A stretch of 64,000 bases of DNA, taken from positions 128,001 through 192,000 of the forward strand of contig JBGUGD010000007.1 in the NCBI GenBank assembly GCA_041697335.1. The letters are read 5' to 3'. Source of the DNA: Vampirovibrionaceae bacterium NZW_1234. Its GTDB lineage: Bacteria; Cyanobacteriota; Vampirovibrionia; Vampirovibrionales; JAGQHJ01. Position numbers and translations under genes: made by a program. Under the pieces are notes generated by a model, which searched no databases, had not been told where the DNA came from, and worked only from the letters and a program-made list of their open reading frames with translations. The first letter of the stretch is position 1. Every line of letters begins with the position of its first letter. Positions 1-59,310 of the stretch are shown in pieces.

Positions 1-1581
1 TGCGGGGAGTGTTGGTTTGGAAGTATCGGTTTTGGCTTTCTCTGTCACTGACTTAGTGGGCTCTGTTTCCGGAGGGACGGAATCGGAGGCTGTCGAGGTT
101 TTTTCGGTCTTTGCTTTTTTTGTGATAATTCCGAGAAGGTGCTTTAAGGTGTTGTTCTTGGTCGAGGGAGTCGATGACGAGGGTTTTTTGTCGCCTGTGG
201 GCTCGATAGGATTGAGTTTTTCATAGATTGTTTTATAGGCGTCCGCCCCGATGGCATAGGGGTTGTCCTTTCCGGCGGTCAATTTTGCTAGTAATTCGCC
301 ATAGTCTTTAGAGGGCTTACCGCTATCCGAGAACGTCATCAAATCCGGGCTCAATGATTTTTTACTGTCCATTTCGTCAATGAACAAGAGTGCTGAGGGA
401 TACTCCTTTTCATCGGTCGCAGCCTGGGGTGAGGTGTAGAGCGTGGGATCGAGAATGTGCTTCAGCGTCTCATCGGTTTTGGGATCGTAGGTCTTCAGGT
501 CGGTTGGGGTCAGGTAGCGGGGTGTGTAATAGGCCGGATGATCCAGCAAATCTCGCCCAAAGACTTTGGAGGAATTGCGAATGATGAGGGTTCCATGAGA
601 CGGGTGGGAGACCAGCTTCAGGCCATGAAGCAGCAGGACTACGGTTTCCTCATCCAGAGGGAGAGAGGGGGTTAGTTTTTTGGAAAAGAGAAAGCCGTTG
701 CCAAAGGTCTGGGTGATGGGATGACCGTGGAAATAGACACCACCAAACTTCGCCAATAGGGCGTTTTCCTTGCCCATGGCGTCATATTTCAAATGGCGAA
801 AACCCAGACTTAAAGCACCAATGTGCCCCCAGTTGTCCAGGACCTCGGGTGGCGTCTGGAAAAGGCCATGCCGGATAAATCGGGTGATGCTGGTAAGGGA
901 TTTGACCAATTGGTCTTTGTGCGCTTTTTGGGAAACGTCGTGAAACATGGGATGACGCATCAGGAGCATCATCTCAACTTCATTGGGGTGCTGCCCGATA
1001 ATCTTCCGGGAGGCAGCCAGATGATCGCTGGCCTGTTCGATGTGCTGAATCAACGGGGTTACGCCTTCCAGCGTGGGGGCTGCCAACAGGTGATGTACGT
1101 TATCCTGAAGGGTGGCTGTATGCTTCTGGAGGAACTTGGCAAATGCCCCCGCATCCACAGTCCAAGGTTTGCTTAGGGCCAAGGCTTTGGTTAGAGGTGA
1201 TAGTTTACCGTATGATCCGCTTTTTCCTGAGGTTGGAACCCCGATTAAAATCTTCATTTTGGTGGATAATTTGTCGTAAGGGGTCTCAGAGGGGCTTTTG
1301 GGAGCCGACCCCGGGGCTGATGCGGAAGCCGTGGAAGCGTCCTTGTTCGGTTCGGATTTCGGTGTTTCGTCCTTGGGGGGACTATAGAATAGCTTGATAT
1401 CAACTTTGCTAAGGTCCGGCGGTGAAGGTTCCCCTGATTTTTCACCTGTCTCCGGTAACTCTGAGGCGGGAGGAGGGGGATTATCCCCGGGCTTCTTTGG
1501 TTCGTCGGCTCCAAAACGCAGCGGCCGGGTAACGAGCATCCCGGTCGATGGAGAATAAGGACGAAATGGCGTGATTCTCAT
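1..1581 (-). CDS. Large hypothetical protein with N-terminal LRFG leader (3' end outside window)
   Basis: Not in the ORF track. Hand translation from ATG 1581 (alternative ATG 1593) is open to position 1: MRITPFRPYSPSTGMLVTRPLRFGADEPKKPG..., with GVPTSGKS and LLFIDE motifs. Confidence 0.8.
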   Translation of the reverse strand, partial: MRITPFRPYSPSTGMLVTRPLRFGADEPKKPGDNPPPPASELPETGEKSGEPSPPDLSKVDIKLFYSPPKDETPKSEPNKDASTASASAPGSAPKSPSETPYDKLSTKMKILIGVPTSGKSGSYGKLSPLTKALALSKPWTVDAGAFAKFLQKHTATLQDNVHHLLAAPTLEGVTPLIQHIEQASDHLAASRKIIGQHPNEVEMMLLMRHPMFHDVSQKAHKDQLVKSLTSITRFIRHGLFQTPPEVLDNWGHIGALSLGFRHLKYDAMGKENALLAKFGGVYFHGHPITQTFGNGFLFSKKLTPSLPLDEETVVLLLHGLKLVSHPSHGTLIIRNSSKVFGRDLLDHPAYYTPRYLTPTDLKTYDPKTDETLKHILDPTLYTSPQAATDEKEYPSALLFIDEMDSKKSLSPDLMTFSDSGKPSKDYGELLAKLTAGKDNPYAIGADAYKTIYEKLNPIEPTGDKKPSSSTPSTKNNTLKHLLGIITKKAKTEKTSTASDSVPPETEPTKSVTEKAKTDTSKPTLPA

Positions 1582-1673
1582 CAGGCATTCCATACTATCT
1601 GAAACAAGCGTTCTAATAAACGCCGTTCAAGAGGTGAAATTGCCTGGGCAGATTGATTGTTTTCTTAAACGTG

Positions 1674-2384
1674 CTAGAACGACACGCGAATGCCTCGGGC
1701 TCGAAGGGCCGTTAAGACGTCTTGATCGGACCTGCTGTTGGCCACGATTTGCATAAATGTGTTGGAGTCAATGCCCAGTTGCTTGTGCAGGGCCTGATCC
1801 TGAGGGCAGGGGTAGAGCAAATACAGATCGTCCAGTTTGCCTTGGGCTTTCAGGCGGGCTTTGTCCATAGAGCGGCCCAGCCAGCGATAGCCTCCCACAA
1901 TCAGTTCCCCGTCACGAGGCTCGGTGATGCCGGTGCGATCCGAGGTCAAGGTCATCTCGCCGGATGTGCCCCCCGTCGTTGCCGAAGTGTCCGTTACAGC
2001 GGGGGCATTGGGTACGCGATCCGACACGGGCTCGGTCATCGGAGCCAGGCTGGAGAAGCTGCTGCTCTGGGCAGAGGATGTTTCGGCGGAGGCTGGTGTT
2101 TGTGTCGGCTCTGATGGCCTGTTTGTGGTTGCTCCTACACGAAAACCGGCGCCGTTACCGCCGGTGCTCTGGATGTCACGAAAACCCTCGTTACGGGATT
2201 CGAGAAATGTTTTTAATAAAAACGTCAATAACATCATTTGCTGGGAGCTTCCGGTGCTTCGTGTCAGTCCCATGGTGCGGTTGTTGCCGGGATTCAAGCT
2301 TCGCCCAAATGATGGCAACGCGGGTTGAGACCGCAGCAACGAGGTTGACAAGAGCGGCGAAAAAAGCGAACTCACGATAGACAC
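1674..2384 (-). CDS. Ser/Thr-rich protein with C-terminal DUF5069-like domain
   Basis: 236 aa ORF; AGGAG upstream of GTG start; C-terminal WLGRSMDKARL...YPCPQD...LGID pattern recalls DUF5069. Confidence 0.65.
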   Translation of the reverse strand: MSIVSSLFSPLLSTSLLRSQPALPSFGRSLNPGNNRTMGLTRSTGSSQQMMLLTFLLKTFLESRNEGFRDIQSTGGNGAGFRVGATTNRPSEPTQTPASAETSSAQSSSFSSLAPMTEPVSDRVPNAPAVTDTSATTGGTSGEMTLTSDRTGITEPRDGELIVGGYRWLGRSMDKARLKAQGKLDDLYLLYPCPQDQALHKQLGIDSNTFMQIVANSRSDQDVLTALRARGIRVSF

Positions 2385-2848
2385 AACAAGAACTCCTAAC
2401 TCATCAATAACCTAACGTTTAGCAGGAAAAAAAGCAGGGGAAAAAGGGGTGAGAACACAAGCCTAGAGAAAGAGAAGAAGAATAGTAAAAGAGAAGAAAA
2501 GAGAAAATACAACATAGCAAAGCGAGAAGAAGCGAACCTCACCGATAACCTGAGATGAAAAGAGAAAACTATTTAAGGCTGCAGGACACATTCACCTCAG
2601 CAAATCCTCACGGGCTCCCTTTTGGCATAGGGAAGGAAGACTTGCTCAAGTCAGAGCTGTCAGTCTGTTTACTATTTAACCGAGTACACAATTACGAACC
2701 TTACTAATATAAAAACAATCTTAAGAAAGTTGGTGTCAAAATGTTGCGAATTATAAAATAAATATTAAAAATTGGCTAAAATCCCCGCCACGACTGATCA
2801 ACGTTTCAGGGGCCTTAAAACCCATCTGGGGATTGCCGGGTAAAACGT

Positions 2849-12370: not shown

Positions 12371-13783
12371 TTACGGATTTTTCGTAAGGAGCATGTGTTT
12401 CAGATAGCGGGGAGCTGCATAAGAGGTTCCCTGTAACACACTGACTGCATTGGGCTTTCCTGAACCATCGGGATCATAGGTGATAGTGCCATGAACATTG
12501 CGGAAATGAAAAAAGCGGTTGAGCTCCATCAGTTCTCCTTGAGCCGGATGAAACTGGATTCCCGGGAGACTGATGATCTCGGCATCACACAGGCGTTTGA
12601 TGAACTGGACCGGGTAGAGTTTCTGAAAAAGCGGGTGAGTCTTTTTTAGGGTATCTAGTGCCGATGCCAAGGCAGGCTGCTCCAATAGCTTAAAGTCACT
12701 GTATTGTGTGCCAATCAATGAGACGAGGGCTTTTACATCATTCGGAGTGGCCAACATGACATTGCTCGAATGTCCTGCATACTGTTTTACGATGGATCCT
12801 TGTCCTGAAACCTCGTGAGGCGAAATATCGGCTTTACCGTCACCATTCATGTCATAACCTTCCAACTGGCCATTCTCATTGTGAACCTCTGTTACGGCAA
12901 GGGTTCCCTGAGCATACCCGTGGACAAGGGCCCGGCTGCCGGAGTAGGGAGTAATTTGGCCTTTTGCATTGGTGGCTCCCACGATATGCGTGCCTTCGGC
13001 AAGTGCAAAGATATTGATATCATCAGGTCCTTCGTTACCGCCTCCGATGGTTACCTTTGGCTTTGGTTGGCATTCGTATAGATATGCCAGCATCAGGTCT
13101 TCAATCCGAGTCGTTGTTTCAAACTGACTCCGATGTTTCTCCAAAAGGAATCTCGATGCGTCAGGCTGGCTTTTTAGAGGACTGACAATATGATGGCGCA
13201 GTGGTTTCAGCTTGCTATTTGATAATAGTGGTTTTGGAAGGTCATCCCGATAGCCGTATTTGAGGAGTTGGCGATTGATTAGGGTACGGGTTGCGTCAGG
13301 TCCATGGTGGTCTCGAATCTGAACGAGTGGGTTTAGGTGTAAGCTGGCCTCGAATTGATTTTGGCGCAGCATGGCCTTATCGCGGAGGGAAAAATTAATG
13401 CCGTCAAAAAATGGGAACGTGTTTCCCAATTTCGAAATAATATCTTCGCATGCCATCTTGATGGCCAAGTGCTCGGGAAATTTTCGAAGGAGCGGCCCGA
13501 TATCATACCGATGGGTTGTGATGGCCTTGTTCTTCAGCTGAGCTTCAACGACTCGTCCATGGCTGATGTCGGGGATTCCATCCCCATCAATGTCCACATG
13601 TTTGGCTTCCAAAGCTGGCACTGACAGGTGTTCTCTTGAAACGCCAGATGAGCTTATAGGGGTTTCCCGGGCCTTGGAAAATTCGTCCACGATTAGGACG
13701 TGGTACTGCTTTCGAGGGCCCATCGTTTTGTTGTTTCCAAAGCGCGGGATTGTTGTTCTTTCAGCGTTAGGGGGCAGGATCAT
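12371..13783 (-). CDS. S8 (subtilisin-like) serine protease with Ca-binding loops and PRFG leader
   Basis: VLIVD, SHG, GGGNEG and QGTSYAAP catalytic motifs; DIDGDG and DMNGDG loops. Confidence 0.75.
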   Translation of the reverse strand: MILPPNAERTTIPRFGNNKTMGPRKQYHVLIVDEFSKARETPISSSGVSREHLSVPALEAKHVDIDGDGIPDISHGRVVEAQLKNKAITTHRYDIGPLLRKFPEHLAIKMACEDIISKLGNTFPFFDGINFSLRDKAMLRQNQFEASLHLNPLVQIRDHHGPDATRTLINRQLLKYGYRDDLPKPLLSNSKLKPLRHHIVSPLKSQPDASRFLLEKHRSQFETTTRIEDLMLAYLYECQPKPKVTIGGGNEGPDDINIFALAEGTHIVGATNAKGQITPYSGSRALVHGYAQGTLAVTEVHNENGQLEGYDMNGDGKADISPHEVSGQGSIVKQYAGHSSNVMLATPNDVKALVSLIGTQYSDFKLLEQPALASALDTLKKTHPLFQKLYPVQFIKRLCDAEIISLPGIQFHPAQGELMELNRFFHFRNVHGTITYDPDGSGKPNAVSVLQGTSYAAPRYLKHMLLTKNP

Positions 13784-15069: not shown

Positions 15070-15981
15070 TTATTTCTTTTTTAAACCCGTAAAGTCGAAG
15101 TTAATGGTATCTGCAGTTTGCCCATTGGTAAATTCGGCAGTGCTGCGACCTTTTTCCTCAACCCCTTTTGTGCCGGTTTGCCCGGGTTTTGTGAGGTTGT
15201 AACCAAAAGACTTAATCCCAGGTTTGCCTCCCGGACCTTCCTCACCAAAGCCCCGAACTTGCTCTTTACCCGTATTTTTATCGTAAGACACAAATTTGAG
15301 GTTTCCGGCCTTGGCTTCGGCCTCGTCCAGTTTGCCATCATTATTTTTATCAAACCCGGACTTTTTAATGGCCTCAGGGTCCTTGGTACTTTGAATTTCA
15401 TCCGCCTGGAACTTGCCGTCGTTATTTTTATCTTCGAACAGCATGTCGTCTTCCCATTTGTTGACTTCTTTTTCGCCCGTGCCGTCATCAATTTTGACTT
15501 TGCCTTTATCGTCACCCAAGAGGGTCATTTTGCCGTCGCCATTAGAATCGACGGCAAAGGGATCGGCCTTGCCTGTGCCGATATCTTGTTTTTGCTGTTC
15601 AGATAAACCGCCCATGGGTTCCCATTGGTCATGATTTTTGGACCATACCCATTCCGTTCCGGGTGGTGGATCTTCTGTCGGTTTCGGCTTGGTCGGGTTA
15701 ATACCGCCAGCGCCACTATCGCCGCCCATGCCGCCAGCATCGGAGGCTTCTTCGCCACCGCCCAGACCGCCGCCTTCACCGAAAATGTCATCTTCTTCAA
15801 AGTCGTTCCACAATGTGTCTGCGTTCACATCGATCTGATCTTGAGGGTCCTCCTCTAAATTGAGCATCATCATCAGGGGATTCATCGACTCACGACGTGC
15901 CCGCAGATCTCTGTTTTGTTGTTGTAAATCTTGTACAAACGCCTCGTCACCACGAGCGCGCATTGCTGCTCCTATTGCCAT
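15070..15981 (-). CDS. Gly/Asp/Lys-rich protein with EF-hand-like Ca-binding loops
   Basis: DSNGDGK, DKNNDGKFQADE and DKNNDGKLDEAE; Gly-rich linker. Confidence 0.75.
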   Translation of the reverse strand: MAIGAAMRARGDEAFVQDLQQQNRDLRARRESMNPLMMMLNLEEDPQDQIDVNADTLWNDFEEDDIFGEGGGLGGGEEASDAGGMGGDSGAGGINPTKPKPTEDPPPGTEWVWSKNHDQWEPMGGLSEQQKQDIGTGKADPFAVDSNGDGKMTLLGDDKGKVKIDDGTGEKEVNKWEDDMLFEDKNNDGKFQADEIQSTKDPEAIKKSGFDKNNDGKLDEAEAKAGNLKFVSYDKNTGKEQVRGFGEEGPGGKPGIKSFGYNLTKPGQTGTKGVEEKGRSTAEFTNGQTADTINFDFTGLKKK

Positions 15982-21814: not shown

Positions 21815-22653
21815 TAGTGTTGACTCCGTTTTTTAGCCAGTTCAAAGCGACTGAGGAAAATACCAATCATCCCGACGGCAACAGTACCAGCAACGATCAT
21901 GGCCATGAGGTTGCTGGCTCGTCTTAATTCGGAAAAGAGTTTGGTGAAAAATGCTTGATTGTACCTGGGGTTGGTTAGCCCTTTGCTAAGCAGCGACTTG
22001 ATAAACAACGACGGATTTTGACGAGCCATTGCTTTAACTTCGTGAGTTGAAATGCCCAGTGGTTTGGCAATGATAGGAATCGCCAGTTTTTCCAGACCGG
22101 AAGCATTACCTACAACCCGATGAAATTGCTGGGTATACCCAAGCACTTCCCGCTCCATTTGAATGACTTGAGCGGTCATCGGATTGCGCAGCTTGAGGCG
22201 TTTGATGGGTTCAGCCATTTCCAGGGGGGAAGCACCCATGGTTAGTGCCAGGTTTACTCGGGATAGTGTTCCGGCAGAATCGGGATGAAGAATTGTTTGA
22301 CCCATGGGACGAGACATACCATGTTGGGTCAGCCATTGCCCGAGGGATAATGCTTTGTCCCGATGGTGGGTTAATTGGGCAAAGTCTTGGACTATTTGAG
22401 ACTCGGCATTATAGGACTTGTACAGGAGGTAGGCGAGACCACCGGCCATTAAGGATAAAGGAATGTCTGTTCTTACCAAGCGTTGCTGCATGGTTTTTAA
22501 ACGCACTTGTTGTTGAAGAATATGAAAGGAGATGATCTCCTGCTCCATGTCGTCTTCGGGCTCGGATGAATGTTTTTTGGGTGAGGCGGCTCTCAGACTA
22601 CTCCGATGTAATGGAGTAGTGACTTGAGGATAAGGACTCATGAAGTGAACCAC
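21814..22653 (-). CDS. Hypothetical membrane protein
   Basis: 279 aa ORF with two hydrophobic segments; stop overlaps the next start (TAATG). Confidence 0.75.
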   Translation of the reverse strand: MVHFMSPYPQVTTPLHRSSLRAASPKKHSSEPEDDMEQEIISFHILQQQVRLKTMQQRLVRTDIPLSLMAGGLAYLLYKSYNAESQIVQDFAQLTHHRDKALSLGQWLTQHGMSRPMGQTILHPDSAGTLSRVNLALTMGASPLEMAEPIKRLKLRNPMTAQVIQMEREVLGYTQQFHRVVGNASGLEKLAIPIIAKPLGISTHEVKAMARQNPSLFIKSLLSKGLTNPRYNQAFFTKLFSELRRASNLMAMIVAGTVAVGMIGIFLSRFELAKKRSQH

Positions 22654-22668
22654 CAGGCGGGTCTCCTG

Positions 22669-23934
22669 TTAATCATTCAGATTGAGTGTATAGCGCTCAT
22701 TGGGGTCAAATGTGAGTTTGGGCAGTGGTGCTACGTCTTCCTCATGTTGGTGGGATTGCCCGTTTAACATGGTTGCGCCCGCAGCGGGAGGAACGTGAAA
22801 CAAGGAAACAAACTCCAGCCCTGAAAGTCCTGTTTGATTTGCAGAAGGTACTTTTGAGCGTAAATCCGGATCCGCTTTAACCAGTGCGCGAATGGTTTCG
22901 CTTGGAAGACCGTTTTTGAGCCAATGCTTTATAGGTTTCAGATCCACTTGATACACAGAGGGGGCTTGTTTGGGAAATAAGCGTTCAATCGTTGTCTGAT
23001 AGGTGGATGGCAGTTTGAGGCTATTTGGTATTTGAGCCGGATTGCCGACGTAAGGTTTTACAGGTATACCCACGGCCTTTAAATGGTTTAAATAGCCTTT
23101 CAAATCCTCTTGCTGAGGCTCAACCACAACGGCCAATGTGTCGAATTTCCCAAACTGTTCATGAGCCAGGAGTCCCAGTAGATTCGTTAATCCTGTGGGT
23201 GCAATGTCCATGTTTTCCATGGTTGGGAATTCACGTGCGGAAACCATAACCAGTTCGTTGGATTTTGGTTCAAGAACCTGGGTTAGAACGTATCCCATAG
23301 AGACTGGTGTGGTGTGGGGTTTGTTGTCTTCGGGAAACATCTGATGCACGATTGACAGGAGTGTCGGTTGAGTGGGATCCGCTGGGGGCGTCAGTGAAAT
23401 GTCACATAAGGGGACCGTGTCCATGGATTTGGGATAGGTCCGATATTGGACGGGTTTTTGAGGCACTTTGGCAAAGGCGCCACAGACTGTTGTAAATAAG
23501 CTGCCTTCCGCAGGAATCTCCAGTTTGATTTGGTTCTTGGCAGCGCCATGAAGGGCTTGGCGTTCCATAACCGCCGCCTTGATGCGGTTATCATCACATT
23601 GCGCCGGGGTGACCAGGCGAGTGGCATGGTCATGAACCATATAATCGTGCTGGGTTTGAGCGGAAATATTTCGCATCAATCCGCCAGCTTCAATGGTTTC
23701 ACCTTGTTTAATCTTATCAATACTGTTATAGGCGTTTTCAATAATGCCAATGGATAAGCAAATGGGACACATACAGCCTGCAAAGCGGAGATGGCCTGAG
23801 GGCGAGTTACCAGGCGCTTTGGTTGCAATGAAGCGATCCGTCATGTTGGGCTGCCATGTCAGAGGTTTTTGCCCCGGGATAGGGATCTTCTTCGCAGGGA
23901 ACTGAGAGGATGCTTGAAAAGACTGGACTTTCAT
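22669..23934 (-). CDS. Hypothetical protein with LRFAG leader and CMCPIC motif
   Basis: Likely start MKVQSF at 23934; the track start 24156 overlaps the upstream gene and the Fur-like box. Confidence 0.75.
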   Translation of the reverse strand: MKVQSFQASSQFPAKKIPIPGQKPLTWQPNMTDRFIATKAPGNSPSGHLRFAGCMCPICLSIGIIENAYNSIDKIKQGETIEAGGLMRNISAQTQHDYMVHDHATRLVTPAQCDDNRIKAAVMERQALHGAAKNQIKLEIPAEGSLFTTVCGAFAKVPQKPVQYRTYPKSMDTVPLCDISLTPPADPTQPTLLSIVHQMFPEDNKPHTTPVSMGYVLTQVLEPKSNELVMVSAREFPTMENMDIAPTGLTNLLGLLAHEQFGKFDTLAVVVEPQQEDLKGYLNHLKAVGIPVKPYVGNPAQIPNSLKLPSTYQTTIERLFPKQAPSVYQVDLKPIKHWLKNGLPSETIRALVKADPDLRSKVPSANQTGLSGLEFVSLFHVPPAAGATMLNGQSHQHEEDVAPLPKLTFDPNERYTLNLND

Positions 23935-24006
23935 TGAATTCACAAGCCAATAATGTATTTTCAACGTTGATTTCTTTTGTGGCTGATTGAGGGTGGAGAA
24001 TTTGAG

Positions 24007-24033
24007 TTGCAAATAAGAATCATTCTCAATAAG
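24007..24033. promoter_or_regulatory. Fur-like box 2
   Basis: TTGCAAATAAGAATCATTCTCAATAAG, 25/27 identical to the box at 13928. Confidence 0.7.
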
Positions 24034-24127
24034 CCTGGGTCCACCGTAAGAGAAAAGTACTATGTATGTCAAGTCAAAGAAAAATCGGGCTACTGTCGGT
24101 TTTATATACTTTTCTCTGCCAAAACCT

Positions 24128-25825
24128 TTAATTTGTAGGTTTCGATTGGATACCAAGTCGCTTTACTTCTCGATACAAAGCACTTCGGGTTAAACCGGAG
24201 TCTTCAATCATATTATTGATGCGGTAGTCATGACGCTTGAGCAATTGTTCCAAATAGGATTTTGAAGCTAGATCGACAACGGTTGTCAGTGGCTTCGTAT
24301 CCAAATGCTCGACAGCCTGCTTTAATGATTCAAGCCTTGCTTCAATGGGTGGAATAGGGATAGCCGGATCTGCCTGGAGAGCATTTGTTTTACCTTTCAG
24401 TTCGGTTGGGAGGCCGATACCCAATCGTGACAACTCCCGATAAAAGGTCATCACAGCCAATCCTGATTTTGTAGCTGCCTTTGGGACCTTAAAGTCGTTT
24501 TGCTTCAAGGCATGAAGCAGATAGGTTTTTGCCACAAGGTCTCTTAAGGGAGGCAAGGGGCCATCGATGAATTCGCTGACCGCATGATGGAGTTGCTCTT
24601 CGGTGTCGGCAGGAGCCGCTTCATCTTGAGAACGATTGATACGGAGTAAATCCAAGCGGACCTTGTCATCCCACAGCCCCATATTCTTCGCCGTTGCGGT
24701 AATCACGCCGCCGCACAGCTGGTGACGTTGTTGAAGCACCGTTTGATAGACCAGGGCATGAAGTTTATCCCAGGTCAGGTCACCAAAGGCGGCAAGGACC
24801 TGCGCGAGAACACCATTACGAGTATCTGGGGTCAAATTATCTAAATTCATCGGTTTTGCTGAAGGCGGGCTTATTCCCAGATCAGTGGCCTGGATTGCGG
24901 ATTCTTCTCCATTAATCACTGCGCGTTCAATCACGTTCTCCAATTCGCGAATATTGCCTGGCCATGGAGCATTTTTTAAAGTATGGAGGGCCTCTTCAGA
25001 AAACCCACCCGGAAAGGGCTTCCCATATCTTTCGCTGAATTTTGCCAGAAAGTGGTTTGCCAACAGCGGAATATCTTCCTGGCGCTCTCGTAACGGGGGC
25101 ACCCGAATGGGAAACACATTGAGTCGGAAGAACAAGTCATCGCGAAACTTTTTTTCGTCGACCATTTTGGGGAGATCCTGCTTGGTGGCCGTGATGACGC
25201 GAACATCAACGGGGATTTCATCGTTACCCCCCACCCGTTTGATGGTTCGCTCCTGAAGTGTGCGCAGCAGATCCGATTGACACTTGGTCGACATATCACC
25301 CACTTCGTCGAGAAACAATGTTCCACCTGAAGCTTGCTCAAAGATGCCAATACGTTGGCCCGCTGCACCACTGAAGGAGCCTTTCTCATGGCCAAACAGC
25401 TCCGATTCTAAAAGACCTTCCGGGAACGCTGCACAATTCAGGGCTTTCAGCTTTTTACGCGGGCTTAATCCATGAATGGCTTTTGCAACCAGTTCTTTAC
25501 CTGTCCCTGTTTCACCGAGGATGAGTATCGTGGCCGTGGTTGGAGCCACTTTCTGTATTGTTTTGCGGACCTGCTGCATGGCCGGGCTGGTGCCGATGAG
25601 AAAGCGGTCCAGATTGGCTGGAGTAATTTCCTGCGTTTTTATGGATACGCTTTGAAGCGGCTCGTTTCCGGTAAACCGGAATGAAGCTGAATAGAAATAT
25701 GTGGCGGTAGATTGAGGCTTTTGATCTCGATAATGGGTACGGCTTGCACTTGTGTAAAACGACTGAGGCACATAACTATGCCCTAGTGTGCTATATGAAC
25801 CAAGTCGCATCATTACCGAACCCAT
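24128..25825 (-). CDS. Sigma-54 interaction (NtrC-type AAA+) transcriptional regulator with multiple HTHs
   Basis: [37 protein letters not shown] and [10 protein letters not shown]; no receiver domain. Confidence 0.9.
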
Positions 25826-29145: not shown

Positions 29146-31491
29146 ATGGGTATAATTACGTTTCAAAATTTAAATGTCGGCGCGTTGCTTGCTCAGAAGT
29201 CTAAGAGAGCCTCAACGCAACGAGGCACCCCAACAGAGGCCCCCATTAACAGGCGTTTGGGGGCGTTTGCAACGTCTTCCTCTATTTCCCCTCAAAACTG
29301 GAGAGCCTACAAGCTCCAGGTACCCCGGTTTGGACGCCACTTGACCCAAGGGGATCGCAATCATTTGCAGTATTTAGGTGCACATTACCTTGGCAATAAT
29401 CGGGCCGTTTTTCGGGTTTTTGCTCCTGCTGCCAAACAAATGCAGCTTCAACTGACATCTTCCAGTCATCACGGGGCCTACTATGATCCAGTGGCTCCCG
29501 ATGATACGCGAACACTCCCGATGAAACCTCATCCGAGAGACCCTCGGGTCTTTGAAATTGAAGTGGATCAGGTGGTGCCGGGCCACTTGTATCGGTTTGT
29601 TCTTGAGGCAGATCAATCCCGTCGGTACTTGAAAGATCCCAGATCGCAGTTTCAACCCAATGATACGTTTGGTTGGTCGCAACTGATCGATCATGGGGCT
29701 TTTCAATGGACTGATTCTCAATGGAAATCTCCATTTTCCCATCGCAATGACTCTGGTCAGTCAGGAATTCCACCCGGTATGGTGATGGCGGAACTCCATC
29801 TGGCGACCTTGGGGGGATATGATGCTGCTAAAAAAGAAATTGATCGACTTGCGGCAGAAGGTGTCTGTAATACGGTTGAGATTATGCCAATCGGAGAAGG
29901 CTATGGCAAGCTGGGGTGGGGGTTTGATGAGGTGGATAAATTTGCCCCTGAAAGTGGTTTAGGGAGTCCGGAAGCCTTCAAATCACTGGTGGATTACAGT
30001 CATAAAAAGGGTTTAAGTGTTGTTTTGCATGTCGTTCCCAATCACTTTGGACCCTATGGGAATGTCGTTCATGAGTTTGGTGAAGCCTTGGCCTCCAAGG
30101 ATACGGGGTGGGGCCGTCGGCTGAATTTTGACAGCCATAATCGTGACTATATGCGTGATTACATGGTTGACATGATGATGAACTGGGTCGTGAATTATCA
30201 TGTGGATGGATTTCGCATGGATGCGTTGCAAGAGGTGGATTCCGATCAGGCGATGAAACTGATGACCTCCGAATTGCGAAGTCATCCCGAGACGTCGAAG
30301 ACAATCCTGATCGCCGAAAGTATGACCAAATCCAAGCGTCTTACGGCACCTCTGGAAGCTCATTTTATTAACAATCCCGAAGATGAAGTCAACAAGGCCC
30401 AAGCATGTTCTACAGCGCTTCTAAAACAAGGTTATGATGCGCAAGAGATTTTTGATTTTCGAAGTGTCGTGACTGCTTTGGCGATGGATTGGACCATCTA
30501 CGACTGTTCCCCGAGTATTGATGACTTGGCGACAGTATTTCGTCAAGGACAGCGCTACTTTGAACCTTATGGTCAGCATTTACCAACACCACCAGGGTCA
30601 AACAATGTGATCTATGTCAGTGCCCACGACGAGAACGATACGTTCGGGGGAACAAGGCTAGTGCCTCGCTTAATTGCGACTCGGTTAGGTCTGACCCCGG
30701 ATCGACAGTTGACAGATGCCCATAAGCTTAACAAGAAGCCGTTTCGAGATGTATTACCCCTTTTAAAACTGTATCTTCAGCCTAATATGACAGAACAGCA
30801 ATGGAACCAACAGACGGGTGCTCTGGGGTTATCGTTTCAGGTTCCATTGAGTCGGTTTGCTCAGGCCTATCATGAGGCAAAAGCGCTTAATCGTTTAACC
30901 ATGGGGACAATGTTTGTCCATCCTGGACAGAAACGTGTCTTTATGGGCGATCAGCGAGGTGAACTGGCACCTTTTAATTTTAATGGCGAATATCCACCAG
31001 ATGCGAAACATGGGGATAAACCTCTGGCAGATTATGTTTCCGAGCAAAAAGGGTATCGACTGGGCCATGAGGCCTATGCTCAATCTTTGCTGGATCAACC
31101 CGAACTGACCGATCCGATTTGGCAGCGCCAAATGCTTTTATATAGTCAAGATTTGGCGAGATTGCTTCGTACGAACAAAGCTCTGAATAATGGGAGCTTC
31201 ACAAACCTTAAAACCGCTGTGAATCAGCAGCATAAGTTGTTGTTTGTTCATCGCTGGCAGGATAACCATGAGGTGATCGCTGTGATGAACTATGGAGAAA
31301 AGGACTTGCAGAATTTTTCTCTCAATAGCTTTGGCATTTTTCCTCAAGGAACTTGGGAAGAGGTCTTAAACAGCAACGAGGCCAAGTATGGGGGAGACGG
31401 CCAGAACGTGAACGGTGCAAAAGGTATTACTCAACAACAATCTCAAGTGTCGGTTCCTCGACATAGTCTTTTAATTTTTCAAAAGCGATAA
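29146..31491 (+). CDS. GH13 alpha-glucan enzyme (TreZ/branching-enzyme-like) with PRFG leader
   Basis: FRVFAP CBM48-like start; VVPNHFGP, DGFRMDA, IAES and SAHDE; C-terminal WEEVLNSN...YGG. Confidence 0.85.
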   Translation: MGIITFQNLNVGALLAQKSKRASTQRGTPTEAPINRRLGAFATSSSISPQNWRAYKLQVPRFGRHLTQGDRNHLQYLGAHYLGNNRAVFRVFAPAAKQMQLQLTSSSHHGAYYDPVAPDDTRTLPMKPHPRDPRVFEIEVDQVVPGHLYRFVLEADQSRRYLKDPRSQFQPNDTFGWSQLIDHGAFQWTDSQWKSPFSHRNDSGQSGIPPGMVMAELHLATLGGYDAAKKEIDRLAAEGVCNTVEIMPIGEGYGKLGWGFDEVDKFAPESGLGSPEAFKSLVDYSHKKGLSVVLHVVPNHFGPYGNVVHEFGEALASKDTGWGRRLNFDSHNRDYMRDYMVDMMMNWVVNYHVDGFRMDALQEVDSDQAMKLMTSELRSHPETSKTILIAESMTKSKRLTAPLEAHFINNPEDEVNKAQACSTALLKQGYDAQEIFDFRSVVTALAMDWTIYDCSPSIDDLATVFRQGQRYFEPYGQHLPTPPGSNNVIYVSAHDENDTFGGTRLVPRLIATRLGLTPDRQLTDAHKLNKKPFRDVLPLLKLYLQPNMTEQQWNQQTGALGLSFQVPLSRFAQAYHEAKALNRLTMGTMFVHPGQKRVFMGDQRGELAPFNFNGEYPPDAKHGDKPLADYVSEQKGYRLGHEAYAQSLLDQPELTDPIWQRQMLLYSQDLARLLRTNKALNNGSFTNLKTAVNQQHKLLFVHRWQDNHEVIAVMNYGEKDLQNFSLNSFGIFPQGTWEEVLNSNEAKYGGDGQNVNGAKGITQQQSQVSVPRHSLLIFQKR

Positions 31492-50347: not shown

Positions 50348-51451
50348 ATGGGGATACCTCGTGTTTTTCCGACATCTGTGCGCTTTGGCTGGTTCGATCA
50401 TGGTCATCATGCCATTGATACCGGGGCCATAAACCGACTACCGCAACAAACTCAAGATGAAAGGCAATGGCAAGGGTTTTTAAAGGAAAACCTGCAATTC
50501 ATCCATGACGAAGATGATATGGAGGATCTGGTTTATGACGGCCCGATGCATTATGTGGATCTGGATAAATGGCTTCGCCCCGACGTTCCGGTCGCTCACG
50601 AGAAGAAAATGGGGGTTTCTTGGGAGGAGGCCCAAAACGCTTTTTCTGAAGAGGAGCGCCATCGGTTACACCAGCGCTGGCATGCCTCCAGTATTGAACC
50701 CGAGGACTTCTATCGCCCGCGGAACATCTTCTTATCCGTGATGCAGAAATACGATATGGTGAAACGCCAGTTGGAATCCATTGCTCAAGGAAATAAGCGC
50801 CTTTTGACGGTGGCGCCAGGCCACACCAGCCGGGAGTTAAATATTCAACGGAACTTTTACCTGGAGCTGGTGCGCAATGTGGGTCGATTGTCACATTACA
50901 TTGGCGATTTGTTTATGCCACTTCACTTAACACGTTATCACGACTGGCTCTTACACCCGGATGCGAAGGCCGAACAGCACGCCTTTACCGAGGGCATGCA
51001 CTTTTTTCTGGAAGGCAAAACCTTGACGACCCAGGATTATCAATCGCTTCTAAGCACCCCTGTCAAAGCGCCGCCAGGACCACCTCTGAATCGAGAGGCC
51101 CTGAGAACCTACCTGATTGAGAAGATGCAGCAAACCTATGGCCGGATGTATGACCTGGTCAGACTTCAACAGCAGGCGCTTGCCCAGAAGCGTGAGCACG
51201 CCAGTACCGACCTGTACGAAAAGCGTCTGGCGGAAGCGGTAAAGCCCCTGTTATTAGAGCAACTGCAATCGGCACAAGAGGCCTTGGCAGTGACACTCCA
51301 ATCGGTATGGCACGAAGCAGGACGACCAGTAGATTTTCGCTCCACTCAACCGGTTTCACTTCAGCAGAAAGCTTGGTCTGCCTTGATCAGTTTGCCCCGG
51401 AAGCTGGTGGGCCTGCTCCTTCGACGAACACCGCCTGAGGGGAAAAATTAG
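50348..51451 (+). CDS. Zn-dependent phospholipase C / S1-P1 nuclease superfamily protein with VRFG leader
   Basis: WFDHGH, HYVD, SHYIGDLFMPLH and HFFLE zinc-ligand pattern. Confidence 0.8.
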   Translation: MGIPRVFPTSVRFGWFDHGHHAIDTGAINRLPQQTQDERQWQGFLKENLQFIHDEDDMEDLVYDGPMHYVDLDKWLRPDVPVAHEKKMGVSWEEAQNAFSEEERHRLHQRWHASSIEPEDFYRPRNIFLSVMQKYDMVKRQLESIAQGNKRLLTVAPGHTSRELNIQRNFYLELVRNVGRLSHYIGDLFMPLHLTRYHDWLLHPDAKAEQHAFTEGMHFFLEGKTLTTQDYQSLLSTPVKAPPGPPLNREALRTYLIEKMQQTYGRMYDLVRLQQQALAQKREHASTDLYEKRLAEAVKPLLLEQLQSAQEALAVTLQSVWHEAGRPVDFRSTQPVSLQQKAWSALISLPRKLVGLLLRRTPPEGKN

Positions 51452-52013: not shown

Positions 52014-53282
52014 TTAGCGAATCCGCTGAATCACCAGTTTTTTGGATTCCAAGGGATTCAGGCCCAGGCGAGCGCTGGCATTGTCAAAGTTCAAGGCAAT
52101 TTCGACGAAGCGTTTGTCTGGTTTCGGGCTGTAGGTGCTGCCCAAGTACAAGACAGGGTCTTTTTTGGGGACTTGGGCAAAGAATTTTTTCAAGGGCAAT
52201 TGCAGCGGCGTAATGGGATCTGTGGGATCGGCGCTTCGAATTTCAAATACCGCATCCTGGGCCAAGAGCTTTTCTGCTTGTTTGGCGTTGAGAATCAGGT
52301 TCGTTTTGATGTTACCGAAGGTTCGGTCTTGAACGCCATAAAATTCCGTGCCCTTGTCGCTTGCTTTTAGAGGCAGAGAGACGATGGATTGGGCAAATGG
52401 GGTGATCTTGGGCGTAAATTTACGAGCTCGTTTCTCATCACATAAGGCTTCCGGGGCAATGCCGTTGGCAATGGCCGCAGCTGCCACCATAAACACATCT
52501 CGCCCGTGGAAGGTTTCAGGCAGTGTGTAGCTGGGGTTTTTCAGGCGAATGCGCTCCAGTTGCTGAACTTTTTCCAAATCGATGGGCAGGAGTTTATAAC
52601 GTTCGCCTTTTTCTTCCAGACTCTTGATGGCCAAGCTGAAAATGCCGTTATTGGGGCCAATCACCAAGCCGTAGTTCTCCGTGATGAGAATGCTTCGATC
52701 ATGGGTGATTTTTTTCTTTCGGGTCTCCCCATTACCAACACCGGGGTCACACACCAGAACAACAATGTCTTTGTTTGGACGTGATGTTGCAATCCGTTGC
52801 AGGGTGAGTGCAGCGTAGTCGGTATTCCCGAAGGGAATGTCGGACAGGGAGTGAACGGGGATGGTGTCGGCTTTTTTCGGTGTTGAGAACACCCCTAAAA
52901 TGGCGTTTAGAACTGTCTTTAAAATCGCTTTGATTTGGCCGATTAGTGATGTGTCCGGTGCTTCTTTGGGGGCGCGATTCCAGCGCTTAAAGGGTTGCAG
53001 TTCCTGGCCCCGGGTGTCGGTGAATTTTAAGACGTCCCGGTAACGACTGATGGCTTCGGCATTGGAGCTGGCATCGTTAAAATCGGTAATGAGGTGAACA
53101 TTTTCAATGGGGGCTTTAACCCAGGATTTTCCAAATCGCAGGTTTGGCAAGGAATGTAATGACCCTGCGCCTTTTAGGAGGCTGTGACGAGCGGGCACCC
53201 GTTGGGAAATCTGCGCTGGGGATTTTTTTAGGGGAAGGGTGTGTTGTGTGACAGTGTGGTGAATGGGGTGAATGTGGGACAT
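52014..53282 (-). CDS. SAM hydroxide adenosyltransferase / SAM-dependent halogenase (DUF62) family with LRFG leader
   Basis: LITDF, VCDPGVG, GPNNGIF, TFHGRDVF and FGNIKTN. Confidence 0.85.
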   Translation of the reverse strand: MSHIHPIHHTVTQHTLPLKKSPAQISQRVPARHSLLKGAGSLHSLPNLRFGKSWVKAPIENVHLITDFNDASSNAEAISRYRDVLKFTDTRGQELQPFKRWNRAPKEAPDTSLIGQIKAILKTVLNAILGVFSTPKKADTIPVHSLSDIPFGNTDYAALTLQRIATSRPNKDIVVLVCDPGVGNGETRKKKITHDRSILITENYGLVIGPNNGIFSLAIKSLEEKGERYKLLPIDLEKVQQLERIRLKNPSYTLPETFHGRDVFMVAAAAIANGIAPEALCDEKRARKFTPKITPFAQSIVSLPLKASDKGTEFYGVQDRTFGNIKTNLILNAKQAEKLLAQDAVFEIRSADPTDPITPLQLPLKKFFAQVPKKDPVLYLGSTYSPKPDKRFVEIALNFDNASARLGLNPLESKKLVIQRIR

Positions 53283-53554: not shown

Positions 53555-53579
53555 TCTGTAAGGTAAAACTCGGTCTTGT

Positions 53580-56016: not shown

Positions 56017-56054
56017 GAACGTTTTCTACATCCCTCTGCTTAGAACGGTTAGTC

Positions 56055-56891: not shown

Positions 56892-57785
56892 ATGCCAGAG
56901 CTTTTAACCCGAGAGGGGACTCGCGTCTATTACGAGACGACGAGTGATGTTGGTGAGCCGCTTGTTCTGATTCATGGTCTGGGTTCGTCCGGGCAGTTAT
57001 GGCAACCGCAAGTGGCCGACCTCAAGAATCACTATCGTGTGATAACGCTTGATTTCCCAGGCCATGGACGTTCCGGCAAGGCGGATGCCTATTCCATTGA
57101 GCAGCTGGTGGATGTCCTGGAAGACGTGATGGATCATTGCGGCATTGAGAAAGCCCACCTGATGGGCTTATCTCTGGGATGTGCAGTGGCTTTGACGTAT
57201 GCTACCCGATTTCCGGAGCGGGTATTATCGCTTGTTCTTCAAGGGCCGGTTGGTGGCTTGGTCCCCAGAACACATCCCGGCTGGTGCGTTAAAATCGCCT
57301 TGTTAAGGGCTTACCTTTTATTTTTATACCTCTTGTCGTGTATTGCCAGTCGCGAAGCCGCCATTCATTGGGTTAACTGCTACGGATTTCAAACGTATGG
57401 GGTTTATCAATTCCTGGAGTCCATCCAGTGCCGTGCGCAACCCAAGGCGATATGGCAATTGGCCCAGGCTCTGGCCTATCCCCCTTACATCGGCAAACTG
57501 CACCAGGTGGCTTGCCCCCTGCTCTTGGTGGTGGGGGCTGGAGATGTCACGCCGAAACGTTACTGGCAGTACATTATGGAGAATGTATCCGGGGCAACCC
57601 AGTACGTGATTGTCCCGAGAGCCCGGCATATTGTCTCTATTGAACAATCATCCCACTATAACCAGCTTGTCCTTCAGTTCTTGGGGGATTTGAAGAGAGC
57701 ACATACGTTTGGGGTCTCAAAATCGCAGGCTGCTCGTCAGCCAGTTAAGACTCGGGGCGTTCTTTTTCCGGCAGGCGCTCAATAA
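56892..57785 (+). CDS. Alpha/beta hydrolase
   Basis: LIHGLG, DFPGHGRS, GLSLG and ARH; GGAG before ATG 56892. Confidence 0.9.
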   Translation: MPELLTREGTRVYYETTSDVGEPLVLIHGLGSSGQLWQPQVADLKNHYRVITLDFPGHGRSGKADAYSIEQLVDVLEDVMDHCGIEKAHLMGLSLGCAVALTYATRFPERVLSLVLQGPVGGLVPRTHPGWCVKIALLRAYLLFLYLLSCIASREAAIHWVNCYGFQTYGVYQFLESIQCRAQPKAIWQLAQALAYPPYIGKLHQVACPLLLVVGAGDVTPKRYWQYIMENVSGATQYVIVPRARHIVSIEQSSHYNQLVLQFLGDLKRAHTFGVSKSQAARQPVKTRGVLFPAGAQ

Positions 57786-59310
57786 CATTAACCATGCAGT
57801 TCAAGAGTCCATCGCCGTCTTCCAGCTCCAGCATGCCGGGGACGGGGATCAGAATCGCCTGTGGGCCATACAGTTTACGATAGGTCTCTAACGCCTCTTT
57901 GTCCTGGGGGCTGTTGCCACCTTGCACTCCGATATACAGAATGGGTTGGCCTGTGTCTGTCTGGTCGGTCACAATATTGACATAGTTGAGCAGGCTGCTT
58001 TTCCCATCCGGTGTGAGCCATAGAGTTGATGAGGGGACGGTTTCAATCTCGAATCCGCCATCAAGCAATTGTTTGCGAGCCCCATTGTAGTACACAAGGC
58101 TTTTTTCATAGCGCTCCCGGGCGAGGTCGGTTTTTGCTGAGGTGAGGTTCAAGGGCGGAACCGGACGACTCAGCACCATCACAGGTTTTCCGGAAGGTCC
58201 CGCACAACCGGGCGTGAACCCCACCAAATCTGCATGATAATCCAGGCCATGCATCGGGAGTTCCGACTCTTTCAAAGTTTCGATATGAGGGTGTAGACGG
58301 CGTCGTTCTTCTGGCGGCATGGTTTTCAATACATCCCCAAAGGTCAGCTTTTGGGTGTTGCCACCAATAAATACCAGGGAGCGAGGGGAATAGCCGAGCG
58401 TCGAAAAAGTGTTGATAAATTCACTCACGGTTTGAACGATACGCTGTGGTAATGGGGTCGGTGCCTGATTCATCCAGATAGCCTGGTGTTCCAGAGAACG
58501 GTAACCAATCAGGAGGCCCGGCCCGTAAGGCGTGTGTATGGGGCGGATGTCCCCGCCTTCAAAATAGAGGGTTGAATGTTGCTTTTCATCGAACCCAATA
58601 CGGGCTTTTACCAGATCGGACGCCACGTGTGACGAATGGCGGTATCCACCTTTGGGCTCCAGCGCCATGCGTTGATTTCCAGAAGGTGTTTTCAGATTTA
58701 GGGCCATCAGATTATCCTGTTGATACCACGTGACGTTGCCTTCAGAGGGGAGCAACCGGACGGTTTTTCTCGGGATTTTCAAGGTCTTGAACAAGGTGGT
58801 TTCCAGCTCCATTAGACGTTCAGGCGTCGTGTGCTTACCATAGGTCAATAAAATGGTGGCATTCGGGTTTTGGGTATGAAGGGCTTTCAGAAATTCGATT
58901 TGAAGAGGATGAAGCCCATCTTGAGACTTCGCCCTGTCATCAATTCCCATCAGGACCGTCTTAATAGGGCCACGCTGCTGGTTTACCAGGGGCATGGTCG
59001 CTGTTGGTTTTAGCCAGCGATATCCATTGCCTGCCTGAATCGGGGGGATTATGGCTTCTGGTGACGACATTGAATGCCTTGGATTGGAAGGCCGGAGTGC
59101 CCAGGCTCCGGAAGCAAGCCCCGAGCTTAGAGCGAGAAACAGGGCGGTCTGTTTTAGTTTGGATCCGCAAAATGAAATGCTTGGCAATGTTGATGGGGAT
59201 AAAGAACCTGTCTTCGTCGTTATAGACCGGGTATGAGGCTGTCCATTTGAAGCACCCCGATAAGGCCTCATCGGCGAATAAGAGCCAGTCCGAATTGCGT
59301 TAAGCTTCAT
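57745..59310 (-). CDS. Pentein-superfamily (agmatine/peptidylarginine deiminase-like) protein
   Basis: WYQQD, FEGGD, HAD, NYVN and C-terminal GLLNC in the order typical of guanidino-modifying enzymes. Confidence 0.65.
   Translation of the reverse strand: MKLNAIRTGSYSPMRPYRGASNGQPHTRSITTKTGSLSPSTLPSISFCGSKLKQTALFLALSSGLASGAWALRPSNPRHSMSSPEAIIPPIQAGNGYRWLKPTATMPLVNQQRGPIKTVLMGIDDRAKSQDGLHPLQIEFLKALHTQNPNATILLTYGKHTTPERLMELETTLFKTLKIPRKTVRLLPSEGNVTWYQQDNLMALNLKTPSGNQRMALEPKGGYRHSSHVASDLVKARIGFDEKQHSTLYFEGGDIRPIHTPYGPGLLIGYRSLEHQAIWMNQAPTPLPQRIVQTVSEFINTFSTLGYSPRSLVFIGGNTQKLTFGDVLKTMPPEERRRLHPHIETLKESELPMHGLDYHADLVGFTPGCAGPSGKPVMVLSRPVPPLNLTSAKTDLARERYEKSLVYYNGARKQLLDGGFEIETVPSSTLWLTPDGKSSLLNYVNIVTDQTDTGQPILYIGVQGGNSPQDKEALETYRKLYGPQAILIPVPGMLELEDGDGLLNCMVNVIERLPEKERPES

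Follow-up and report, generated by a model that had tools for sequence, protein, structure and literature searches.

What is an N-terminal extension that ends in the tripeptide Arg-Phe-Gly (RFG) doing on proteins of unrelated families? The question is raised by a 64,000-nucleotide (nt) stretch of the genome of Vampirovibrionaceae bacterium NZW_1234 (contig JBGUGD010000007.1, positions 128,001 to 192,000; G000:C13:128001-192000 in our numbering, called the window below), in which an earlier note, made from the letters of the DNA, had pointed to a shared leader of this kind on about nine proteins. The genome (3.70 Mb in 41 contigs, 94.75% complete) was placed in family f1 of Vampirovibrionales, an order of non-photosynthetic relatives of cyanobacteria whose other families are f2 and f3. 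We consider it probable that the RFG leader is a real lineage-specific presequence, likely cleaved after its Gly, which directs ~175 unrelated proteins from the cytoplasm by a route other than those of Sec, twin-arginine (Tat), prepilin, and double-glycine leaders.

N-terminal counts were made on 3032 open reading frames (ORFs) of at least 100 amino acids (aa) from the whole genome, a crude set of greedily chosen, longest non-overlapping ORFs obtained with no gene finder. The first 60 residues of these ORFs were compared to the remaining ~865,000 residues. RFG was counted 176 times in the former and 197 times in the latter, a 4.3-fold enrichment (binomial p = 4.5e-40). It is the most N-terminally enriched of all tripeptides, above every Met-initial one, so the expectation that the motif would stand out over background was borne out. 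The five remaining permutations of these residues are enriched 1.08- to 1.52-fold. The coding pattern of RFG is enriched 4.3-fold in frame 0, 1.2-fold in frame 1, and 1.1-fold in frame 2, with no enrichment in the 150 nt upstream of the ORFs; 186 RFG sites in the first 70 residues use 36 different codon triplets, and wobble positions vary. Enrichment in frame 0 only, together with varied codons, places the signal at the protein level, and the frame and upstream controls rule out a nucleotide-level element. A single paralogous family is also ruled out: in an all-against-all blastp comparison, 88 of 105 carriers in the strict set defined below are singletons with no relative within the set.

An artefact of over-extended ORF starts, of a nucleotide element read in frame, or of chance could in principle produce such a pattern, given the crude ORF set and the ~41 N-terminal RFG sites that chance alone would supply. 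We regard this explanation as next to negligible in view of the p value and the restriction of the signal to frame 0 with variable wobble positions. In addition, good Shine-Dalgarno sites are found upstream of leaders, and the motif is kept in orthologues across genomes of 42 to 62% GC.

The related pattern RF[SQA]G is enriched 6.0-fold (48 N-terminal occurrences versus 38 elsewhere), which makes RFAG (10 versus 11, 4.1-fold) plausible as a variant. RFTG (3 versus 5), SFG (1.65-fold), and SFCG are weak variants, and GFG is not enriched (0.94-fold). After subtraction of the internal rate, ~135 RFG and 40 RF[SQA]G proteins remain, or ~175 carriers (5.8% of ORFs). The motif of the earlier note is thus real, but its set of about nine proteins is a small part of a much larger one.

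Alignment of 185 proteins on RFG gives the motif [S]-[L/P/V/I]-R-F-G-[S/A/Q/N], which ends an acid-poor, Ser/Thr/Pro-rich, non-hydrophobic stretch. Position −2 is Ser in 25% (4.1-fold), position −1 is Leu, Pro, Val, or Ile in 69%, and position +1 is mostly Ser, Ala, Gln, or Asn. Upstream positions are rich in Pro, Ser, Thr, and Arg, with Pro enriched ~2-fold. The strict set comprises the 105 of 185 RFG proteins that lack Asp and Glu over the 12 residues preceding the motif and have an allowed −1 residue; ~26% would be expected to be free of acidic residues from the 10.6% Asp + Glu content of the genome. The same acid filter helped define a larger flagged set of 161 proteins, whose 0.7% Asp + Glu figure is therefore circular. 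In the strict set, the acid-poor stretch extends over ~3 to 60 residues (median 18; exclusion of acidic residues is built into the definition), and the motif lies a median of 18 residues from the best-scoring start codon (quartiles 9 and 27; 5th to 95th percentile, 3 to 42). Hydrophobic residues are favored at positions 3 and 4 (46 and 41% versus 30 and 29% in other proteins), and cysteine is less frequent in carriers (0.65%) than in the rest (1.10%).

The leader was described in the earlier note as neither a Sec nor a Tat signal, and it indeed has no hydrophobic core and no twin arginine. A hydrophobic 15-mer occurs in the next 60 aa, after the motif, in 5 of 105 strict leaders compared to 16.3% of all ORF N-termini. 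For a 12-mer, the figures are 18 of 161 flagged proteins after the motif and 24.4% for the first 60 residues of non-flagged proteins. The claim that the motif directly precedes the folded domain held in part: the gap to the start of the Pfam domain ranges from 3 to >25 residues, so that the two are not always adjacent. Some leaders are followed within 10 to 20 residues by a signal-peptide-like, lipobox-like, or transmembrane segment, as in the window protein 57745-59310 (minus strand) and in the proteins encoded at C34:13551-15176, C30:132242-134326, and C34:197549-198304 elsewhere in the genome; this bipartite layout is reminiscent of thylakoid-lumen transit peptides.

All nine N-terminal instances first listed for the window are present in the sequence:

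1510..1593, minus strand: LRFG leader of a 749-aa protein with no family assigned; RFG at nt 1510-1518; no Asp or Glu in the 15 residues upstream
2304..2384, minus strand: PSFG leader, a weak variant, of a DUF5069 protein; SFG at nt 2304-2312
13736..13783, minus strand: PRFG leader of 13 aa on a 470-aa protein with weak FG-GAP hits; RFG at nt 13736-13744
23776..23934, minus strand: LRFAG variant leader; RFAG at nt 23776-23787, which is aa 50 counted from the ATG at 23934 or aa 124 in the longest ORF
25667..25825, minus strand: FRFTG extension of a sigma-54-type AAA+ activator without a receiver domain; RFTG at nt 25667-25678; Sigma54_activat domain from aa 76
29146..29334, plus strand: VPRFG leader of a GH13/CBM48 glucan enzyme; RFG at nt 29326-29334; CBM48 begins 14 aa on; promoter score 19.5 (see below)
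50348..50389, plus strand: VRFG leader of 14 aa; RFG at nt 50381-50389; putative cleavage site Gly14/Trp15
50390..51451, plus strand: the predicted mature zinc phospholipase C / S1-P1 nuclease-fold enzyme, beginning at Trp15
53130..53282, minus strand: NLRFG leader of 51 aa on an S-adenosylmethionine (SAM) hydroxide adenosyltransferase (SAM hydrolase) homologue; RFG at nt 53130-53138; F50 invariant in alignment A1
59164..59310, minus strand: ISFCG variant extension; SFCG at nt 59164-59175; a hydrophobic signal-peptide-like stretch directly after; good Shine-Dalgarno site (GAGGA) before the ATG at 59310

The first gene continues beyond the window (full gene C13:127344-129593, 749 aa), and the PSFG gene at 2384 has a GTG start with no ATG upstream. 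Pfam confirms the GH13, SAM hydrolase, and sigma-54 AAA+ proteins of this list; membership of the FRFTG activator in the leader set is doubtful. The labels subtilase (gene 12371-13783) and pentein (gene 57745-59310) were not upheld: Pfam and NCBIfam scans, relaxed ones included, revealed neither a subtilase nor a pentein, and PDB sequence searches returned nothing for either gene or for gene 50348-51451. No Pfam or NCBIfam family was found for the 57745-59310 and LRFAG proteins. A run of co-directional genes, possibly one operon, lies at 19727-25825 (minus strand); it encodes the sigma-54-type AAA+ protein, an AAA/STAND-like ATPase of 695 aa whose N-terminus is P/Y-rich, and two proteins (495 and 279 aa) of no known family.

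The most direct indication of what happens to the leader comes from gene 50348-51451, in which a Trp follows the 14-residue VRFG leader directly. Pfam scores for this protein fall below the cut-off (E = 0.041). Of 49 genomes from the order, 18 have a homologue (1 of 4 in f1, 2 of 19 in f2, and 14 of 25 in f3), and in eight homologue ORFs from seven genomes, obtained by a pattern filter on 19 loci, [R/Q]FG stands directly before Trp in all eight. The seven-sequence alignment A2 has invariant F13, G14, W15, H20, H68, H183, D187, H193, H218, and E222, in keeping with the N-terminal Trp and the His/Asp zinc ligands of zinc PLC / S1-P1 nucleases. When its profile was compared with the PDB, plant and bacterial S1/P1 nucleases (E from 1e-4 to 0.008) and Bacillus phospholipase C (PLC; 0.015) were matched. 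An AlphaFold2 model (pLDDT 80.7, pTM 0.85; leader residues 1 to 11 below 50) was aligned by VIA-align with 29 PLC/S1-P1 entries at Z 16.1 to 19.0 and a root mean square deviation of 2.7 to 4.0 Å over 208 to 229 residues, the next unrelated entry scoring Z 5.0. Foldseek probabilities for PLC/S1-P1 entries were 0.84 to 1.00, with 1.00 for the top-ranked ones. The model thus agrees with the label of phospholipase C or nuclease proposed earlier and has the all-helical PLC/P1 fold of the zinc PLC / S1-P1 nuclease superfamily.

In all 29 structural matches, the aligned range begins at residue 15 of the model and at the first residue of the mature chain. Mature S1 nuclease is described in PMC5201275 as beginning at Trp21 after removal of the signal sequence and as coordinating zinc through its N-terminal main chain. 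The leader is likely to be cut after Gly because the Trp that follows RFG must be a free N-terminus for zinc binding. An exhaustive HMMER search of 1.84 billion representatives yielded 64 family members. In 50 of these, xFG stands directly before Trp or Phe (40 by an FG-then-W pattern, 10 by eye); eight are truncated or without the region, and one is different. The five most distant members (E from 1e-6 to 6e-4) have a classical hydrophobic signal peptide whose last residue directly precedes the Trp. Maximum hydropathy is at most 1.5 for the FG leaders, which can be as short as 7 to 8 residues, and 2.3 to 2.9 for the five true signal peptides. Since these signal peptides end at the same residue, the RFG leader appears to replace a Sec signal, and secretion of the carriers would follow from this replacement in a family of secreted enzymes. 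The suggestion of a cleavage peptide made in the earlier note is thus strongly implied by this family. A homologue from f2 (L178 of G098, 1000-2124) has a non-hydrophobic leader that ends in RQG before the Trp, with no Phe; it may be that cleavage after Gly came first and the Phe joined the motif later.

A similar replacement is suggested by a trypsin-like family in which four paralogues start with a signal peptide or anchor and two with an RFG leader.

Further carriers were examined by Pfam in two batches. The first covered 54 of the 102 strict carriers outside the window, taken from twenty 20-kb stretches and hence biased to clustered genes; families were found in 21. Proteases and AAA+ proteins were represented by an FtsH-like AAA+M41 protein, Lon, three ClpB-like AAA_2 proteins, an M20 peptidase, and a trypsin-like protease. 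Metabolic families were lactate/malate dehydrogenase, enoyl-CoA hydratase, isochorismatase, and acyltransferase; nucleotide-related ones were phosphoribosyl pyrophosphate (PRPP) synthetase, guanylate kinase, NTP-transferase, an NMNAT-like protein, adenosine deaminase, and an EEP nuclease/phosphatase. EF-hand, FHA, YunG, and FliW proteins completed the list, FliW being likely a chance carrier whose RFG belongs to its own conserved N-terminus. The second batch consisted of 35 of 47 further flagged proteins, 12 with a chance-like context having been dropped. Eight had families: citrate synthase, CinA, two ClpP-like proteins, a glutamate-synthase domain, glutamate dehydrogenase, TPR, and DUF444. 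Carriers reach ~1400 aa and include full-size enzymes. The set thus goes beyond the hydrolases of the earlier proposal: it is dominated by additional copies of AAA+ proteases and of enzymes from central and nucleotide metabolism.

Every tagged enzyme that was checked has one or more leaderless paralogues of ~30 to 55% identity, and the alignment begins past the leader. It starts at residue 100 of the tagged citrate synthase and residue 10 of the 376-aa leaderless copy; the corresponding positions are 188 and 27 for glutamate dehydrogenase, 22 and 3 for malate dehydrogenase, and 60 and 33 for PRPP synthetase. As far as these comparisons go, the genome encodes a tagged second set of many housekeeping functions, which agrees with the remark of the earlier note that housekeeping genes themselves lack the leader.

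If the RFG leader took over the role of the Sec signal peptide as an export tag, a cut directly after Gly would free the mature N-terminus, and the cargo would have to arrive in a compartment with ATP and metabolites, most probably inside a cell of its prey or host, in the cytoplasm. It is the Lon-, FtsH-, ClpB-, and ClpP-like proteins, the kinases, citrate synthase, and malate and glutamate dehydrogenases that would point to such a destination because ATP- or cofactor-dependent enzymes are useless in the periplasm or the medium. A bolder version, which we hold only tentatively, is a previously unknown delivery pathway in which an organelle-style x-R-F-G presequence would send shadow tricarboxylic acid cycle, nitrogen, and nucleotide enzymes together with AAA+ proteases into prey or host, whose metabolism would be run and dismantled from inside. 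Plastid transit peptides may have a common ancestry, or a common logic, with such an FG-containing presequence.

The same cargo consists mostly of enzyme types that work in the cytoplasm, and a second explanation keeps it there. The leader could be a cytoplasmic propeptide or short linear motif, recognized by a dedicated protease or partner that activates, times, or degrades stage-specific isoenzymes, much as Prp acts on ribosomal protein L27, with nothing leaving the cell. Leaders of 7 to 8 residues, the shared alternative promoter described below, which suggests a stage-specific program, and the lack of a co-varying export machine all fit this view. It fits less well with the PLC/S1-P1 family, in which the leader stands in place of a Sec signal peptide with the same end point and activation of a zinc nuclease or phospholipase in the cell's own cytoplasm would presumably be harmful. 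The signal peptides and membrane anchors on trypsin-like paralogues of the tagged protease and the depletion of cysteine in carriers also count against it, as does the systematic duplication of housekeeping enzymes, for which a single compartment offers no easy explanation. We judge a cytoplasmic role fairly unlikely.

The cargo is also reminiscent of what organelles contain (citrate synthase, malate and glutamate dehydrogenases, enoyl-CoA hydratase, Lon, FtsH, ClpP, ClpB, GH13/CBM48, NTP-transferase). It could be imagined that the leader mimics a eukaryotic organelle presequence and that, after delivery by some other signal, the import machinery and processing peptidase of the host or prey take the enzymes into plastids or mitochondria. 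The acid-poor, Ser/Thr/Pro/Arg-rich composition would suit this, and so would the signal-peptide-like segment after some leaders, a layout known from bipartite transit peptides. Arg at −3 and Ser or Ala at +1 bring to mind the R-3 motif of mitochondrial cleavage sites, as FG does the FGLK motif of plastid transit peptides. Many RFG leaders, however, have only 7 to 12 residues, fewer than known organelle import signals need. Natural transit peptides are much less strict in sequence, the ~2-fold enrichment of Pro is ill-suited to amphipathic mitochondrial helices, and a bacterial export step would still be required. On the other side, a cultured relative has Chlorella as its prey (PMC4451040). 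Overall, mimicry of organelle signals seems to us highly improbable.

The distribution of the leader was assessed in samples of 120 to 200 kb from each of ten other genomes; the samples are small and, coming from related genomes, are not independent tests. The numbers of RFG sites in N-terminal regions and in the rest of the proteins were as follows:

G004 (f1): 7 N-terminal, 7 in the rest; 4.2-fold
G003 (f1): 3 N-terminal, 9 in the rest; RFSG, RFQG, and KFG leaders also present
G022 (f3): 7 N-terminal, 12 in the rest; 2.9-fold, leaders clear
G006 (f3): 2 N-terminal, 7 in the rest; a few leaders, with other residues before FG
G020 (f3): 2 N-terminal, 19 in the rest; a few leaders, with other residues before FG
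G005 (f2): 2 N-terminal, 6 in the rest; none leader-like
Outgroups: G096 (f5) 1 and 5; G055 (f7) 2 and 3; G031 (f4) 1 and 1; G091 (f6) 0 and 2

The leader was thus found in f1 and f3 but not in the sampled f2 genome or in four outgroup families, in line with the lineage specificity proposed earlier. SAM-hydrolase orthologues from five other f1 and f3 genomes have x-F-G (or F-S) 12 to 15 residues before the first conserved strand. The Phe is invariant in alignment A1, and the rest of the leader varies in length and sequence; three further homologues have two copies of the motif each. A close SAM-hydrolase homologue with a similar N-terminal extension is also found in L012, a record titled uncultured Gammaproteobacteria bacterium, whose bin label looks doubtful.

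Leader genes are partly co-regulated through an unusual promoter. The 7-mer GCAATTT lies upstream of 27 of 161 carriers compared to 134 of 2871 other ORFs. The pattern GCAAT[TA]T-N15-16-TT[TC]A[ATG]T has 57 sites in the genome; 40 are upstream of an ORF in the sense direction, and 11 of these 40 ORFs are carriers. With a weight matrix (consensus AAAGGCAATTT, about 12 nt, GTTTTTATTGTAA) and a cut-off score of 16, 94 ORFs were selected, including 21 carriers, while 140 of the 2938 ORFs below the cut-off are carriers (odds 5.7, p = 7.8e-9). The window has one such site before its first gene:

1615..1643, minus strand: promoter-like site GCAATTT-N16-TTTATT; score 27.8

The other members of the regulon are mostly low-complexity proteins rich in Gly, Asn, Gln, Tyr, Pro, and Phe without signal peptides. 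In relatives, the same promoter stands before leader genes in G004 and G003 and before low-complexity genes in f3. As an observation in its own right, the promoter-like element GGCAATTT, about 13 nt, GTTTTTATT precedes about 90 genes for leader and low-complexity proteins. Eukaryote-like low-complexity proteins rich in Gln, Pro, Asn, Tyr, and Gly are also encoded in the window on the minus strand (26171-26788, 15070-15981, and the N-terminus of 19727-21814). FG/GFG repeats abound in many of their relatives elsewhere in the genome, among them C37:20670-23252 and C29:47765-48454.

A machine that might export the tagged proteins was sought among known systems. No VirB4, type VI sheath, or phage-type sheath was found in G000, so type VI and phage-like or extracellular contractile injection system (eCIS) sheaths were rejected as routes. 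VirB4 was found in only 2 of 31 genomes, both of genus g20. PMC4451040 advances type IV secretion as a hypothesis for the attack mechanism of Vampirovibrio; with VirB4 missing from most leader-carrying genomes, this cannot explain the leader. The genome encodes one TatC and one SecA. SecA2 was rejected because there is a single SecA wherever SecA was found, and an injectisome secretin because the two secretins of G000 belong to a type IV pilus / type II secretion locus and a Tad locus. Peptidases of the C39 type (7 in G000) were rejected as well: they occur in 0 of 4 f1 relatives and 4 of 13 f3 genomes, and the two f1 relatives that were sampled carry the leader though no C39 was found in them. 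M16 peptidases (8 domain hits in G000) are present in 31 of 31 genomes and are therefore uninformative. Among the systems searched for, none tracks the leader, contrary to the co-distribution with a secretion system or peptidase that had been proposed as a check. Recurrent neighbors of leader genes include nothing machinery-like.

The C39-like proteins of G000 are unusual in themselves. Five of them are stand-alone peptidases of 232 to 375 aa with no fusion to an ATP-binding cassette (ABC) domain (C37:142312-144786, C5:228339-229037, C14:49516-50214, C17:11018-12145, C4:52203-53150). Two of the seven domain hits lie just over the Pfam cut-off, and there is in addition one C39-ABC transporter (C16:2359-4485). 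In the other 30 genomes, only single C39 hits in ~700-aa proteins were found at E ≤ 1e-5, in the 4 of 13 f3 genomes mentioned above.

Two complete flagellar-type type III export gene sets are present in G000:

C2:99137-104324 and C2:179936-186195: set 1, with L/P-ring and hook-associated genes and flagellins
C32:10110-20950 (FliI, FlhA, FliF, FliG, rod genes), C29:178739-179761 (FlhB), and C8:66046-68072 (FliPQR): set 2

The FliPQR genes of set 2 adjoin four consecutive carriers. Its FlhB gene adjoins a FliA-like sigma gene, the neighbor of which bears the regulon promoter. This second set is the only candidate translocon that we see, and a weak one.

It could also be the whole explanation, if the leader were the export signal of set 2 acting as a flagellum-derived secretion device. 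Besides the two complete sets and the neighborhoods just described, the disordered, Ser/Thr/Pro-rich, acid-poor leaders with hydrophobic residues at positions 3 and 4 and the depletion of cysteine can be cited in favor; such a composition resembles known type III signals. Several observations count against this explanation, and the first two equally against set 2 as the translocon of the presequence that we favor. Two full FlhA copies occur in all 15 Vampirovibrionales sampled, leader-poor f2 included, and in outgroups f4, f6, and f11. The flagellin genes and both export sets lack the leader-regulon promoter, so the flagellar late regulon was rejected as the leader regulon. Known type III signals have, to our knowledge, no strict motif and no cleavage. 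Leader genes are dispersed and only mildly clustered (17 adjacent pairs compared to 8.3 ± 2.7 in 2000 shuffles). We regard a plain type III signal as unlikely. In f7, one full FlhA was seen together with a protein of about 500 aa that consists of the C-terminal domain only.

Other points weigh against an exported, cleaved RFG presequence in general. Both cleavage and export are deduced from comparisons of sequence and predicted structure, and the argument for cleavage comes from a single family. Chance alone would account for about 41 of the 176 N-terminal RFG sites, and FliW and MoaA-like proteins have RFG within N-termini that are conserved in their own right. In 18 of 161 carriers, the motif is succeeded by a membrane or signal-like segment, and one carrier is a sigma-54-type activator, for which an extracellular role is hard to see. 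The picture in relatives comes from only 120 to 200 kb per genome, no secretion machine searched for (type IV, type VI, eCIS, C39, M16, SecA2) co-varies with the leader, and we know of no type III substrate that is cleaved. Against these stand the protein-level enrichment, the exchange for Sec signal peptides, and the leaderless paralogues, on which our preference for the presequence is founded.

Compared to known signals, the RFG leader shares with Sec signal peptides its N-terminal position and, in the PLC/S1-P1 family, its end point; it differs in having no hydrophobic core, R-F-G instead of small-x-small, and lengths down to 7 to 8 residues. In contrast to Tat signals, Arg is not among the six commonest residues at −1, the Phe comes right after a single Arg, and there is no hydrophobic region. 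Double-glycine leaders, including those of peptidase-containing ABC transporters (PCAT), are likewise non-hydrophobic and N-terminal and are cut after a glycine, as the RFG leader probably is, but RFG has an invariant Phe at −2 from the putative cut, an acid-poor leader, full-size enzyme cargo, and no co-distribution with C39. Type IV prepilin leaders are also short and basic, with a cut after an invariant Gly; here, the Gly is present, but the hydrophobic helix is missing, Glu is not enriched at +5, and residues +1 to +30 are hydrophilic. Type III signals are similar as disordered, Ser/Thr/Pro-rich, acid-poor N-termini of many unrelated proteins in a genome with two export sets, and secreted metabolic enzymes have a type III precedent in Chlamydiae; the strict RFG motif and the mismatch between the distributions of machinery and leader set them apart.

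Mitochondrial and plastid presequences are acid-poor as well, are cleavable, as the RFG leader probably is, and occur on isoenzymes that duplicate cytosolic ones, and M16 peptidases are plentiful here. The RFG leaders nevertheless belong to a bacterium, can be very short (a quarter of at most 9 residues), have an aromatic residue at −2, and coexist with M16 peptidases that are present in every genome surveyed. RxLR in oomycetes and PEXEL in Plasmodium are short N-terminal motifs, thought to be protease sites, that mark large and diverse effector repertoires. RFG is likewise a short, probably cleaved motif that marks a large effector-like repertoire, but the former follow a Sec signal peptide in eukaryotic pathogens, while RFG is bacterial and stands without one. 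In literature searches that combined an RFG motif with N-terminal secretion or covered Vampirovibrio, Vampirovibrionales, Vampirovibrionia, and Melainabacteria, mostly at the level of titles and abstracts and without supplements, no such leader was described. The RFG leader lacks the features that define leaders of the Sec, Tat, prepilin, and double-glycine types.

If about 6% of a bacterial proteome does carry a conserved, cleavable, non-hydrophobic N-terminal tag, bacterial sorting signals would gain a new class. The tag would, in addition, yield a ready catalogue of the proteins that a poorly known predatory or host-associated lineage, of which we know of only one cultured member, sends elsewhere. 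Since this lineage belongs to the sister group of the lineage of the plastid ancestor, an acid-poor FG presequence in it bears on the question of how transit peptides arose.

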